Assembly: GCF_044324875.1 (NCBI RefSeq)
Contig: NZ_CP172185.1
Reading direction: 5' to 3' (one strand)
From: Escherichia coli
Lineage (GTDB): Bacteria > Pseudomonadota > Gammaproteobacteria > Enterobacterales > Enterobacteriaceae
DNA: 64,000 nucleotides
Below, piece after piece: positions 19,759 through 60,168 of this stretch. Both the position numbers and the translations under genes were made by a program. Position 1 is the stretch's first letter, and each line of letters opens with the position of its first letter. The notes below the pieces were generated by a model. The model was not told the origin of the DNA. It ran no database searches and saw nothing but the letters and a program-made list of their open reading frames with translations.

Positions 19759-19925
19759 TTTTTCTGTTCATCATCTTGCCGTGCAGCTGGCACGGCAAGA
19801 CAACCGCTCTCGGCAGATGTGCATTGAACGCTCATTCCTCCGCCATTTCATCCCGCTTTCCTGTGGTAATCTTCCTCTGAACCACCTACGATCATTTCTA
19901 TAATGAATATATTGTTGAGGTATCT

Positions 19926-25845: not shown

Positions 25846-25910
25846 TTCCTGAGACAAAGTACAAACAACAAGAACCTGCTGAGCAGGTTCTTAATCGGAA
25901 AGTTGAAAAG

Positions 25911-38267: not shown

Positions 38268-40547
38268 ATGGATGACCAGTTAAAACAAAGTGCACTTGAT
38301 TTCCATGAATTTCCAGTTCCAGGGAAAATCCAGGTTTCTCCAACCAAGCCTCTGGCAACGCAGCGCGATCTGGCGCTGGCCTACTCACCAGGCGTTGCCG
38401 CACCTTGTCTTGAAATCGAAAAAGACCCGTTAAAAGCCTACAAATATACCGCGCGCGGTAACCTGGTGGCGGTGATCTCTAACGGTACGGCGGTGCTGGG
38501 GTTAGGCAACATTGGCGCGCTGGCGGGCAAACCGGTGATGGAAGGCAAGGGCGTTCTGTTTAAGAAATTCGCCGGGATTGATGTATTTGACATTGAAGTT
38601 GATGAACTCGACCCGGACAAATTTATTGAAGTCGTCGCCGCGCTTGAACCGACCTTCGGCGGCATCAACCTCGAAGACATTAAAGCGCCAGAATGTTTCT
38701 ATATTGAACAGAAACTGCGCGAGCGGATGAATATTCCGGTATTCCACGACGATCAGCACGGCACGGCAATCATCAGCACTGCCGCCATCCTCAACGGTTT
38801 GCGCGTGGTGGAGAAAAACATCTCCGACGTGCGGATGGTGGTTTCCGGCGCGGGTGCCGCAGCAATCGCCTGTATGAACCTGCTGGTAGCGCTGGGTCTG
38901 CAAAAACATAACATCGTGGTTTGCGACTCAAAAGGCGTTATCTATCAGGGCCGTGAGCCAAACATGGCGGAAACCAAAGCCGCATATGCGGTGGTGGATG
39001 ACGGCAAACGTACCCTCGATGATGTGATTGAAGGCGCGGATATTTTCCTGGGATGTTCCGGCCCGAAAGTGCTGACCCAGGAAATGGTGAAGAAAATGGC
39101 CCGTGCGCCAATGATCCTGGCGCTGGCGAACCCGGAACCGGAAATTCTGCCGCCGCTGGCGAAAGAAGTGCGTCCGGATGCCATCATCTGTACCGGCCGT
39201 TCCGACTACCCGAACCAGGTGAACAACGTTCTTTGCTTCCCGTTCATCTTCCGTGGCGCGCTGGACGTTGGCGCAACCGCCATCAACGAAGAGATGAAAC
39301 TGGCGGCGGTACGCGCGATTGCAGAACTGGCCCATGCGGAACAGAGCGAAGTGGTGGCTTCAGCGTATGGCGATCAGGATCTGAGCTTTGGTCCGGAATA
39401 CATCATTCCAAAACCGTTTGATCCGCGCTTGATCGTCAAGATCGCTCCTGCGGTGGCGAAAGCGGCGATGGAGTCGGGCGTGGCGACGCGTCCGATTGCT
39501 GATTTCGACGTCTACATCGACAAGCTGACGGAGTTCGTTTACAAAACCAACCTGTTTATGAAGCCGATTTTTTCCCAGGCTCGCAAAGCGCCGAAGCGCG
39601 TCGTTCTGCCGGAAGGTGAAGAGGCGCGCGTTCTGCATGCCACTCAGGAACTGGTAACGCTGGGGCTGGCGAAACCGATCCTTATCGGTCGTCCGAACGT
39701 GATCGAAATGCGCATTCAGAAACTGGGCTTGCAGATCAAAGCGGGTGTTGATTTTGAGATCGTCAATAACGAATCCGATCCGCGCTTTAAAGAGTACTGG
39801 ACTGAATACTTCCAGATCATGAAGCGTCGCGGTGTCACTCAGGAACAGGCGCAGCGTGCATTGATCAGTAACCCGACAGTGATCGGCGCAATCATGGTTC
39901 AGCGTGGCGAAGCCGATGCAATGATCTGCGGTACGGTGGGCGATTATCATGAACATTTTAGCGTGGTGAAAAATGTCTTTGGTTATCGCGATGGCGTTCA
40001 CACCGCAGGTGCCATGAACGCGCTGCTGCTGCCGAGTGGTAACACCTTTATTGCCGATACATACGTCAATGACGAACCAGACGCAGAAGAGCTGGCGGAG
40101 ATCACCTTGATGGCGGCAGAAACTGTTCGTCGTTTTGGTATTGAGCCGCGTGTGGCTCTGTTGTCGCACTCCAACTTTGGTTCTTCTGACTGCCCGTCGT
40201 CGAGCAAAATGCGTCAGGCGCTGGAACTGGTCAGGGAACGTGCACCAGAACTGATGATTGATGGTGAAATGCACGGCGATGCAGCGCTGGTGGAAGCGAT
40301 TCGCAATGACCGTATGCCGGACAGCCCTTTGAAAGGTTCCGCTAATATTCTGGTGATGCCGAACATGGAAGCTGCCCGCATTAGTTACAACTTATTGCGC
40401 GTTTCCAGCTCGGAAGGTGTGACTGTCGGCCCGGTGCTGATGGGTGTGGCGAAACCGGTTCACGTGTTAACGCCGATCGCATCGGTACGTCGTATCGTCA
40501 ACATGGTGGCGCTGGCTGTGGTTGAAGCGCAAACCCAACCGCTGTAA
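38268..40547 (+). CDS. maeB: NADP-dependent malic enzyme (malic enzyme domain fused to PTA-like domain)
   Basis: 759 aa, two-domain architecture. Confidence 0.96.
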
Positions 40548-40564: not shown

Positions 40565-40597
40565 CGCTTACCCTGAATATTCAGGGTAAGCGGTTTT
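40565..40597 (+). terminator. Rho-independent terminator after maeB
   Basis: Perfect 12-bp stem cgcttaccctga/tcagggtaagcg, 4-nt loop, then GTTTTCC. Confidence 0.75.
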
Positions 40598-52516: not shown

Positions 52517-53404
52517 ATGGATCAAAAACAGATTGAAGAAATTGTACGCAGCGTGATGGCGTCAATGGGACAAGCGGCCCCCGCGCCGTCAGAAGCAAAG
52601 TGCGCCACCACCACCTGTGCGGCACCGGTGACCTCGGAAAGCTGCGCGCTGGACTTAGGCTCTGCGGAAGCAAAAGTGTGGATTGGTGTTGAAAACCCGC
52701 ATCGCGCAGACGTATTAACAGAACTGCGTCGCAGCACCGTGGCCCGCGTTTGTACCGGTCGTGCCGGTCCGCGTCCGCGTACCCAGGCGTTGCTGCGTTT
52801 CCTGGCCGATCACTCTCGTTCGAAAGATACCGTACTGAAAGAAGTGCCGGAAGAGTGGGTGAAAGCGCAGGGCTTGCTGGAAGTCCGCTCTGAAATTAGC
52901 GACAAAAATCTCTACCTGACTCGTCCGGATATGGGCCGCCGCCTGTGTGCAGAAGCTGTTGAAGCCCTGAAAGCACAGTGTGTTGCTAATCCGGACGTGC
53001 AGGTCGTTATTTCTGATGGCCTGTCAACTGATGCGATCACCGTGAACTACGAAGAGATCCTGCCGCCGCTGATGGCGGGCCTGAAACAGGCCGGGCTGAA
53101 AGTCGGTACGCCATTCTTTGTTCGTTATGGTCGCGTGAAGATTGAAGATCAGATCGGTGAGATCCTCGGCGCGAAAGTAGTGATCCTGCTGGTGGGGGAA
53201 CGCCCGGGATTAGGGCAGTCAGAAAGCCTCTCCTGCTACGCCGTTTACTCGCCGCGTATGGCGACCACCGTTGAGGCCGATCGCACCTGTATTTCTAACA
53301 TTCACCAGGGCGGCACGCCGCCGGTTGAAGCCGCAGCCGTCATTGTGGATTTGGCGAAACGTATGCTGGAGCAGAAAGCATCCGGCATCAACATGACCCG
53401 ATAA
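52517..53404 (+). CDS. eutC: Ethanolamine ammonia-lyase small (light) subunit
   Basis: 295 aa. Confidence 0.95.
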
Positions 53405-53413
53405 GGAGGCATC

Positions 53414-54073
53414 ATGCCAGCTTTAGATTTGATTCGACCGTCGGTCACCGCCATGCGGGTGATTGCCTCCGTTAACGCCGAATTTGCGCGTGAACTGAAA
53501 TTGCCGCCGCATATTCGTAGCCTCGGGCTGATTTCTGCTGATTCCGATGACGTCACCTACATTGCGGCTGACGAAGCGACCAAGCAGGCGATGGTCGAAG
53601 TGGTGTATGGCCGCTCGCTGTATGCGGGCGCTGCACACGGACCGTCACCGACTGCCGGTGAAGTGCTGATTATGCTCGGTGGGCCAAACCCGGCGGAAGT
53701 GCGTGCTGGTCTGGATGCGATGGTTGCGCATATTGAAAATGGCGCGGCTTTCCAGTGGGCTAATGATGCGCAAGATACGGCATTCCTGGCACATGTAGTT
53801 TCGCGTACCGGTTCTTATCTCTCATCAACCGCCGGGATCACGCTTGGCGATCCGATGGCGTATCTGGTGGCACCGCCGCTGGAAGCGACCTACGGCATTG
53901 ATGCAGCGTTGAAATCTGCCGACGTACAGCTGGTGACCTATGTCCCGCCACCGTCTGAAACCAACTACTCGGCAGCATTTTTAACCGGTAGCCAGGCCGC
54001 GTGTAAAGCAGCCTGTAACGCCTTTACCGATGCAGTGCTGGAAATCGCGCGTAATCCAATCCAGCGTGCGTAA
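53414..54073 (+). CDS. eutL: Microcompartment shell protein EutL (tandem BMC domain trimer)
   Basis: 219 aa. Confidence 0.93.
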
Positions 54074-54085
54074 CGGAGGTTGCCG

Positions 54086-54586
54086 ATGATCAATGCACTG
54101 GGATTGCTGGAAGTGGACGGCATGGTCGCCGCGATAGATGCAGCTGATGCCATGCTCAAAGCAGCTAACGTTCGTCTGCTCAGTCACGAAGTGCTTGACC
54201 CTGGTCGCCTAACGCTGGTGGTGGAAGGCGATCTGGCGGCGTGTCGTGCGGCGCTGGACGCAGGTTGTGCTGCCGCGATGCGTACCGGGCGTGTCATCAG
54301 CCGTAAGGAGATCGGTCGGCCAGACGATGACACCCAGTGGCTGGTTACTGGCTTTAACCGCCAGCCGAAGCAACCCGTAAAGGAACCCGACGCGCCAGTT
54401 ATCGTCGCGGAATCTGCTGACGAGTTGTTGGCGCTGTTAACATCAGTACGTCAGGGAATGACGGCAGGAGAAGTGGCAGCCCACTTTGGCTGGCCGCTGG
54501 AAAAAGCCAGAAATGCGCTCGAACAGCTCTTTTCTGCCGGGACGTTACGTAAACGCAGTAGTCGTTACCGTCTCAAGCCCCATTAA
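54086..54586 (+). CDS. eutK: Microcompartment shell protein EutK (BMC domain plus C-terminal nucleic-acid-binding-like domain)
   Basis: 166 aa from ATG 54086 (MINALGLLEVDGMVAAIDAADAMLKAANV...). Confidence 0.9.
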   Translation: MINALGLLEVDGMVAAIDAADAMLKAANVRLLSHEVLDPGRLTLVVEGDLAACRAALDAGCAAAMRTGRVISRKEIGRPDDDTQWLVTGFNRQPKQPVKEPDAPVIVAESADELLALLTSVRQGMTAGEVAAHFGWPLEKARNALEQLFSAGTLRKRSSRYRLKPH

Positions 54587-54598
54587 CCTGTCGGAGGT

Positions 54599-54622
54599 GC
54601 CGGGTGTCCTACAACACCCGGC
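54599..54622 (+). promoter_or_regulatory. Stem-loop in the eutK-eutR spacer
   Basis: Perfect 9-bp stem gccgggtgt/acacccggc with 6-nt loop, ending 10 nt before eutR ATG; flanked by direct cattaac repeats. Confidence 0.45.
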
Positions 54623-54631
54623 ATTAACATC

Positions 54632-55684
54632 ATGAAAAAGACCCGTACAGCCAATTTGCACCATCTTTATCATGAACCCTTACCCGAAAACCTGAAGCTC
54701 ACGCCGAAGGTCGAAGTGGATAATGTTCATCAACGACAGACAACGGACGTCTATGAACATGCTTTGACAATTACCGCCTGGCAGCAGATTTACGATCAGC
54801 TGCATCCGGGCAAGTTTCATGGTGAATTTACGGAAATTCTACTCGATGATATTCAGGTTTTTCGTGAATACACTGGTCTGGCGCTGCGTCAGTCGTGCCT
54901 GGTCTGGCCGAACTCGTTCTGGTTTGGCATTCCGGCGACGCGCGGTGAGCTGGGATTTATCGGTTCGCAATGTCTGGGAAGCGCAGAAATTGCGACGCGC
55001 CCGGGTGGAACTGAGTTTGAATTAAGTACGCCGGACGATTACACGATCCTTGGCGTAGTGCTTTCTGAAGATGTCATCACTCGTCAGGCTAACTTTTTGC
55101 ATAATCCGGATCGGGTATTACATATGCTGCGTAGCCAGTCGGCGCTGGAAGTGAAAGAGCAGCATAAAGCCGCGCTGTGGGGCTTTGTCCAACAGGCGCT
55201 GGCGACGTTTTGCGAGAACCCGGAAAATCTCCATCAGCCTGCAGTGCGAAAAGTGCTGGGGGATAATTTGCTCATGGCGATGGGGGCGATGCTGGAAGAA
55301 GCGCAGCCGATGATGACGGCGGAAAGCATCAGTCATCAGAGTTACCGTCGATTGCTTTCCCGCGCCCGTGAATATGTGCTGGAAAACATGTCCGAACCGG
55401 TGACGGTGCTGGACTTGTGTAATCAACTGCATGTCAGCCGCCGCACGCTACAAAACGCGTTTCACGCCATTTTGGGCATTGGTCCGAACGCGTGGCTGAA
55501 ACGTATTCGCCTGAACGCCGTGCGCCGCGAACTCATAAGTCCGTGGTCACAAAGCACAACGGTAAAAGACGCCGCCATGCAGTGGGGATTCTGGCATCTT
55601 GGGCAATTTGCCACGGATTATCAGCAACTGTTTGCCGAGAAGCCGTCACTGACGCTGCATCAGCGGATGCGAGAGTGGGGGTGA
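54632..55684 (+). CDS. eutR: AraC-family transcriptional activator of the eut operon
   Basis: 350 aa; C-terminal AraC-type HTH. Confidence 0.93.

Positions 55685-59184: not shown

Positions 59185-60168
<984 letters not shown>

Follow-up and report, generated by a model that had tools for sequence, protein, structure and literature searches.

The intercistronic region between eutK and eutR in Escherichia coli is probably a split (noncontiguous) ribosome-binding site for eutR, a reading to which we assign a likelihood of roughly 60% on the basis of sequence comparison, predicted folds and analogy to known sites in phage T4. In the operon mRNA, the eutK stop codon would be followed after 6 nt by a strong GGAGG, then by a stable hairpin of 24-26 nt, an A/U-rich spacer of 8 nt and the eutR AUG. 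Unfolded, the GGAGG would lie 34 nt from the AUG, beyond reach for placing a 30S subunit. Folding would loop out the hairpin and shrink the gap between this Shine-Dalgarno (SD) sequence and the AUG to 8-10 nt in E. coli, and a 30S subunit paired with the GGAGG would then set the eutR AUG in the P site. We infer that eutR initiation uses this remote SD and that the hairpin probably raises, rather than lowers, eutR translation. All of the sequence-level hallmarks of a split site of the T4 gene 38/25 type are found at this junction.

Anatomy of the eutK-eutR junction

The window, that is, the whole stretch of 64,000 nucleotides that was analysed, is a segment of the E. coli chromosome with an intact eut operon, and hemF and amiA lie 3' of eutR on the opposite strand. 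From the eutK stop to the eutR start, across the 45-nt gap between the two genes, the sequence reads TAA-CCTGTC-GGAGG-TGCCGGGTGT-CCTACA-ACACCCGGCA-TTAACATC-ATG, and the features of this region are as follows.

54080-54586, + strand: eutK, an open reading frame named by the annotation of an identical E. coli record
54581-54587 and 54622-54628, + strand: CATTAAC direct repeat, located with a repeat finder, probably incidental
54584-54586, + strand: eutK stop codon TAA, 6 nt 5' of the GGAGG
54593-54597, + strand: candidate remote SD, GGAGG, 34 nt (linear) 5' of the eutR ATG and abutting the 5' base of the stem
54598-54607, + strand: 5' arm of the hairpin, TGCCGGGTGT, from the inverted repeat, the MFE structure and covariation
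54604-54627, + strand: seven-codon mini-ORF, GUG...UAA, in the hairpin, specific to Escherichia and probably incidental
54608-54613, + strand: hairpin loop, CCTACA, free in length and sequence across orthologues
54614-54623, + strand: 3' arm of the hairpin, ACACCCGGCA, from the inverted repeat, the MFE structure and covariation
54624-54631, + strand: A/U-rich unstructured spacer, TTAACATC, from the hairpin base to the AUG, with no SD (best anti-SD duplex -1.7 kcal/mol)
54632-55684, + strand: eutR, encoding an AraC-family activator of 350 aa, from the open reading frame and the annotation of an identical E. coli record

The ATG at 54632 is the earliest in-frame eutR start past the eutK stop, and both the EutR N-terminus and its ATCATGAAA context are kept at all loci that we compared. 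A preliminary description of this DNA had drawn attention to the CATTAAC repeats that flank the hairpin. These repeats are present, but their significance is doubtful: CATTAAC is not kept outside Escherichia, and six repeat families of 7-15 nt occur within the same 600 nt, so the repeat is probably incidental. On the same two grounds, lack of conservation beyond Escherichia and a size class that is common locally, we rejected a target-site duplication left by an insertion.

Several other observations concern the genes around the junction. In E. coli, eutK and eutR share a reading frame, and the eutK TAA is the sole in-frame stop between them (54584-54634). Read-through of this stop would give an EutK-EutR fusion with a linker of 15 residues; in Citrobacter, an in-frame TAA past the hairpin precludes such a fusion. 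The last eutK codons (KRSSRYR; 54550-54575), which contain a small palindrome, TGCGTAAACGCA, look well conserved between genera at the nucleotide level. Across the last 30 eutK codons, third positions are invariant in 2 of 30, i.e., conservation overall is not unusual, and these ordinary third positions give no sign of a promoter embedded there. Further upstream, eutC is an uninterrupted 295-codon open reading frame in the window (52517-53404). It is annotated as a pseudogene with an internal stop in E. coli GN25 (L064:15138-16025), where the eutK-eutR segment is 100% identical to that of the window; coordinates 5' of eutS are shifted by ~340 nt, so the window derives from a different strain.

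Fold and stability of the hairpin

With the repeat finder, the stem was located as an inverted repeat of 10 bp without mismatches (54598-54607 / 54614-54623) that encloses a loop of 6 nt. The preliminary description had reported a perfect 9-bp stem, gccgggtgt-cctaca-acacccggc, upstream of eutR. That stem is indeed there (54599-54607 / 54614-54622), and an outer T-A pair extends it to 10 bp. Its statement that the hairpin ends 10 nt before the ATG holds for the 9-bp stem, whose last base is 54622. The hairpin dominates the predicted fold of a 91-nt segment (MFE -26.3 kcal/mol, z = -2.85), and 2 of 200 shuffled sequences were as stable.

The window has 4 sites at which a perfect stem of 10 bp or more encloses a loop of 3-8 nt, against 0.57 expected per shuffled 64-kb window, and the chance of finding one within one given 45-nt intergenic gap is about 4e-4. 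Given the expectation of 0.57 per window, a lone hairpin is unremarkable and the structure as such is merely suggestive, so it is the position of the hairpin and its evolution that decide. The window also contains five further perfect hairpins with stems of 9 bp or more (2611-2645, 19774-19808, 25870-25900, 40565-40595 and 59227-59260), all of which lie at gene ends. One of these sits just past the open reading frame at 38268-40547 (maeB in the matching E. coli record), and directly 3' of the hairpin at 59227 lies the AGGAGGAACAATG of the next gene. Most of the five are followed by T-runs and resemble ordinary intrinsic terminators.

Ribosome-binding sequence and spacing

The preliminary description overlooked the GGAGG at the 5' base of the stem. 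The duplex of this sequence with the 3' end of 16S rRNA is predicted at -10.8 kcal/mol in E. coli, and the remote SDs of hairpin-bearing junctions range from -10 to -10.8 kcal/mol. The same description had noted that no SD lies between the hairpin and the ATG, and our calculations agree: the best anti-SD duplex at positions -20 to -1 reaches only -1.7 kcal/mol in E. coli, and -1.7 to -2.4 kcal/mol when five other hairpin-bearing junctions are considered along with it. In relatives without the hairpin, the best duplex at these positions is -6.4 to -10.6 kcal/mol.

Across hairpin-bearing junctions the linear distance from SD to AUG is 34-38 nt, with 86 nt in Intestinirhabdus alba. In the predicted folds of the orthologues, whose hairpin energies are -16.7 to -23.6 kcal/mol, the spacing becomes 8-13 nt, mostly 10-11 nt. 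Although hairpin length and sequence vary, there are 0-2 nt between SD and stem and 8-11 nt between stem and AUG in all hairpin-bearing orthologues.

Neither the SD nor the start codon lies inside the perfect stem, and we therefore rejected a hairpin that sequesters the ribosome-binding site. The eutR AUG is 8-9 nt outside the stem with a probability of being unpaired of 0.67-0.84, and two weak G-U pairs reach the SD in some species only. In E. coli and Citrobacter, the folds predict weak G-U pairing between the final two Gs of GGAGG and the UU 3' of the stem, and with it low accessibility of these Gs; this pairing is absent from Salmonella arizonae. The hairpin is thus predicted to leave the AUG free and to sequester the SD core marginally at most. 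Another pairing, a long-range one between CUGUCGG (including the first two SD Gs) and eutR codons 5-7, is predicted in E. coli, and we discarded it as it is lost, by eye, in Citrobacter and Klebsiella.

The size of the downstream footprint of the ribosome and the position of its helicase are established. The stem starts 12 nt past the eutK stop codon and, given that footprint, ribosomes terminating on eutK should leave the stem folded, so that eutR would be translated from the long transcript of the main promoter P1 in fixed proportion to the operon. A spacing of 8-13 nt, to which the width of the helix end is added, comes close to the longest that is usable, and output could therefore be low; a split arrangement may give less output than a contiguous site.

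Conservation of the junction across species

We searched for homologs of the EutR protein in one genome per species, which yielded 63 loci, and compared 26 distinct junctions from Escherichia, Citrobacter, Klebsiella, Salmonella, Pseudocitrobacter and Pluralibacter. A common layout, TAA-CCTGTC-GGAGG-(0-2 nt)-hairpin-(8-11 nt, A-rich)-ATG, was found in Escherichia, Citrobacter, Klebsiella, Salmonella arizonae, Pseudocitrobacter and a Pluralibacter metagenome-assembled genome (MAG). Within this layout the stem itself is built from at least six types of sequence (GGGUGU/ACACCC, GGGCGUU/AACGCCC, GGGGGCUUC/GAAGCUUCC, GGGAGCGU/ACGCUCCC, GGGCGUCC/GGGCGUCC and GGAAGUGC/GCGCUUCC), and the loops, of 3-8 nt, are unrelated in sequence.

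Because hairpin length varies and unguided MAFFT mis-registers the inner stem, we aligned the 26 junctions in register from the stem base with N padding. In this alignment, which leans towards the structure, 98.2% of the stem cells are paired, compensatory changes on both sides occur at 5 of the 12 pairs (35 cells) and none of 500 shuffles reaches the covariation score. When the partners are slid by 1-3 columns, only 38-51% of cells pair, and the outer seven pairs are also found by the unguided alignment. G-U pairs are frequent in the stem across the junctions, as would be expected if the + (sense) strand folds as RNA.

The sequence outside the inner stem is far less free. All 26 distinct junctions share CGGAGG and TC-ATG, and the CCGG/CCGG stem base and the short A-rich spacer vary little or not at all; for comparison, only 4 of the 35 fourfold-degenerate sites in eutR codons 2-110 show no variation across these 26 sequences. 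One and the same 75-nt junction is found in 5357 of 5390 E. coli records, MG1655 and O157:H7 among them, and the most divergent record carries five changes, of which two fall in the loop, with SD, stem and spacer all unchanged. At least 12 true metagenome junctions among the 120 matches listed add a few new stem variants with the geometry unchanged. The hairpin upstream of eutR is real and evolutionarily maintained, and these comparisons indicate that the SD, the stem pairing and the flush geometry are under selection, although the flush geometry could in part reflect phylogenetic inertia within a short intergenic region.

Some of the assemblies in our search call for separate comment. Fragments of EutR that are 94-97% identical to that of E. 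coli were found on ~400-nt contigs (L057, L058 and L059) of Bacillus hominis and Prolixibacteraceae assemblies and are most likely enterobacterial contamination. The MAG 'Citrobacter sp.' HRGM_Genome_0066 (L001, L032) contains an E. coli-type eutK-eutR junction (99% EutR identity) along with a Citrobacter-type eutR fragment, which suggests a mixed bin.

The comparative data bear on two other accounts of the junction. One of these, which would apply to E. coli only, is translational coupling through the mini-ORF: the GGAGG would direct initiation at the GUG at 54604, translation of the seven codons would melt the hairpin, and ribosomes that stop at the UAA (54625-54627) would reinitiate at the eutR AUG. 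The distance from SD to GUG, 6 nt, is ideal, the stop is 4 nt ahead of the eutR AUG and comparable short ORFs occur in several Citrobacter and Klebsiella junctions. However, the GUG is buried inside a 10-bp G+C-rich stem, the mini-ORF (MSYNTRH) is lost in E. whittamii through a compensatory stem change, and a start codon near the SD is lacking in 9 of the 26 taxa, S. arizonae, C. sedlakii, K. michiganensis and I. alba among them. Wherever such an ORF is present its start, frame and length vary, as expected by chance for G/T-rich stems that are followed by UAA-rich spacers. We consider this coupling very improbable, and we rejected leader-peptide or uORF coupling in general as the 26 taxa have no conserved short ORF with a conserved start and stop.

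The other account takes the palindrome to be bound, in the DNA or in the folded RNA, by a regulator that controls eutR, for which the C-terminal nucleic-acid-binding domain of EutK would be the candidate. In favour of this account, the GCCGG...CCGGC stem base does not vary, and the C-terminal helix-turn-helix domain of EutK has no assigned function (PMC5821096). Yet the half-sites are separated by 24-27 nt and up to 77 nt, which is unlike a fixed DNA operator, and G-U pairs would be mismatches in DNA. Further, the inner stem and loop vary freely, and Buttiauxella has an equal EutK tail without such a hairpin. A protein-binding palindrome is thus extremely improbable. The invariance of the stem base and the adjacency of eutK also gave rise to a more specific idea, that the hairpin is a regulated switch bound by the EutK helix-turn-helix domain, by which EutK outside microcompartment shells would tune eutR translation; we regard its odds as just as slim.

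Natural variants and hairpin-free relatives

Two species in which the junction has changed are informative for the split-site reading. Intestinirhabdus alba, in which eutK and eutR are both intact, has a 77-nt hairpin (-50.3 kcal/mol) that lies 0 nt from the GGAGG and 9 nt from the AUG. This hairpin (L028:1404-1500) has apparently grown via an insertion into the ancestral stem. Yokenella regensburgei retains the ancestral GGAGG past the eutK stop, but the sequence that follows has lost its fold (z = 0.05) and a second, new GGAGG is found 5 nt 5' of the ATG.

Beyond this clade, the hairpin is absent and the SD is at a canonical distance in Buttiauxella, Hafnia, Morganella, Pectobacterium, Brenneria, Dickeya and Lonsdalea. 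The SD lies 5-10 nt before the ATG in Yokenella, Buttiauxella, Hafnia, Pectobacterium, Brenneria and Lonsdalea. Brenneria and Lonsdalea have GGAGG, 9 nt and the ATG, and Pectobacterium has GGGAGG with equal spacing; this spacing of ~9 nt is the one that the hairpin-bearing clade attains by folding. Together, the variants suggest that the target of selection is a closed helix that would draw the GGAGG near the AUG, rather than the sequence or size of the hairpin.

These variants also bear on the opposite reading, in which the hairpin is a negative element that keeps EutR low by impeding ribosomes or RNA polymerase arriving on the long transcript, with the GGAGG too distant to serve and eutR poorly translated as an SD-less gene. 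Consistent with such an element are the lack of an SD within 20 nt of the ATG, the stability of the hairpin (-19 to -24 kcal/mol), the predicted partial pairing of the 3' Gs of the SD in E. coli and the fact that few copies of a regulator suffice. On the other hand, both a U-tract and a terminator call are absent, the AUG and spacer are predicted to be open, and eutR is expressed from P1 with autoinduction thought to be needed (PMC5821096). A negative element would also leave unexplained the invariant perfect GGAGG at the stem base, the canonical GGAGG that Yokenella gained upon decay of its hairpin and the flush geometry kept by I. alba with a 77-nt hairpin. We therefore consider a negative element unlikely. 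The invariant flush GGAGG, the new SD of Yokenella and the geometry of I. alba instead point to SD-driven initiation across a folded hairpin, and so to an enabling role. The preliminary description had proposed that the hairpin may limit translation of eutR: we agree that it is part of the translation-initiation region, but these same three observations argue against a brake.

Comparison with known systems

In phage T4, a hairpin between the SD and the AUG shortens a spacing of 22 nt to 5 nt in gene 38 and one of 27 nt to 11 nt in gene 25 (PMC3014915). Translation of both genes drops with mutations that destabilise the hairpin (PMC3014915; PMC7297116), and such sites have been termed noncontiguous or split (PMC7297116). 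Close T-even phages retain the split arrangement, in place of which distant ones have an ordinary site (PMC3014915). As controls, we folded both T4 sites with the same tool that we used for eutR. Gene 38 gave UAAGGAG-[8 bp, UUCG loop]-AAAU-AUG, in which the UAA is the stop codon of gene 37 and the folded spacing is 4 nt, and gene 25 gave GAGG-C-[7 bp]-UUACUAUA-AUG, with 8 nt from stem to AUG and a folded spacing of 9 nt.

Gene 38 and eutR have the same order of parts, namely an upstream stop, a strong SD, a flush G+C-rich hairpin, a short A/U spacer and the AUG. In both, the whole arrangement lies inside a non-coding intercistronic gap and folding is predicted to turn a non-functional linear distance into a usable one. 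They differ in that gene 38 is phage-borne while the eutR element is chromosomal and bacterial, and in that the gene 38 site is backed by experiment while that of eutR is known from sequence and predicted folds. The eutR hairpin is also longer (24-27 nt, and 77 nt in I. alba, versus 20 nt), its folded spacing is 8-13 nt versus 4-5 nt, and its SD is flush with and outside the stem, whereas the gene 38 SD overlaps the first pairs of the stem.

Gene 25 is the closer match in spacing: its hairpin is separated from the SD by 1 nt and from the AUG by 8 nt, and its folded spacing of about 9-11 nt is nearly that of eutR. The phylogenetic pattern is also shared, in that close relatives have the hairpin and distant ones an ordinary site. 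However, the SD and hairpin of gene 25 lie inside the gene 26 coding sequence, whose stop overlaps the gene 25 start, whereas both elements are past the eutK stop at eutR, and the gene 25 hairpin (7 bp, A/U-rich) is far weaker than that of eutR. Based on these comparisons, the eutR junction would best be filed as a new chromosomal case of a known but rarely documented arrangement.

Like an intrinsic terminator or a stabilising intercistronic hairpin, the eutR element is a perfect G+C-rich hairpin at the end of a gene. It differs from a terminator in that no U-tract follows the stem (AUUAACAUC) and in that the sole SD of eutR lies at the 5' base of the stem. A consensus scan of 53900-55000 found no terminator-like site, and we rejected an intrinsic (Rho-independent) terminator since the stem is followed by ATTAACATC, with no U run and no match in the scan. 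A dispersed palindrome of the REP/BIME type was likewise rejected, as the 75-nt junction occurs at a median of 1 place per genome (5389 E. coli genomes) and has no Rfam match with E < 1. An Rfam scan of 54000-55200 at E <= 10 returned chance-level matches only (CRISPR repeats and nhaA-I; E = 2.8-5.2). We found no description of the eutR hairpin in the searchable literature, the coverage of which does not extend to Roof & Roth 1992 and Kofoid et al. 1999.

A hairpin of this kind might also act on the mRNA itself, either as a barrier to 3' exonucleases that protects the upstream eut mRNA once the transcript is cut within or ahead of eutR, or as a 5' stabiliser of a processed eutR mRNA, and would thereby set the ratio of eutR message to that of the structural genes. 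The hairpin is stable and conserved with pairing rather than sequence under selection, a single-stranded A/U-rich stretch (GC|AUUAAC) lies 3' of it, and eutR mRNA is an RNase E substrate (PMC8565329). The published effects of RNase E and MavR, however, concern the 3' portion of the eutR coding region (PMC8565329). Further, a processing or stability element would not explain the invariant GGAGG, the constant distances to the SD (0-2 nt) and to the AUG (8-11 nt) or the compensating canonical SD of Yokenella. As the explanation of the junction it is distinctly unlikely, but it would be compatible with a split site and is plausible as a second role of the hairpin.

Expression of eutR and implications

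EutR controls ethanolamine use as well as virulence genes in EHEC, Salmonella and Citrobacter rodentium, and its dosage relative to the enzymes of the operon is thought to decide whether induction persists. The gene is expressed from the inducible main promoter P1 and from a weak constitutive promoter, P2, just upstream of eutR (PMC5821096). Our scan of the eutK-eutR region for promoter consensus sequences found none and P2 was not placed; if P2 transcripts start 3' of the GGAGG, they would bypass the split site. Autoinduction has been thought to let EutR keep pace with EutBC in the competition for AdoCbl (PMC5821096). Given expression from P1 and this idea of autoinduction, a device that secures eutR translation fits better than one that suppresses it. 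The preliminary description had suggested that the hairpin may limit read-through into eutR and that the autoregulatory loop must be kept weak. The first suggestion is contradicted by the missing U-tract, the empty terminator scan and the expression of eutR from P1, and the second conflicts with the idea that autoinduction helps EutR to match EutBC (PMC5821096).

If the split-site reading is correct, there are practical consequences for work on this regulator. Gene finders and calculators of ribosome-binding-site strength that are limited to 5-15 nt upstream of the start would score eutR as SD-less, and constructs that begin at the ATG or cut through the hairpin would misreport EutR levels. 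The 77-nt hairpin of I. alba and the decayed hairpin and new SD of Yokenella provide ready-made test cases. Split ribosome-binding sites, familiar for the most part from two genes of phage T4, are a textbook curiosity. If true, the eutR junction would be a conserved chromosomal case in E. coli, Citrobacter, Klebsiella and Salmonella, and would mean that bacteria use a phage device in their own operons.
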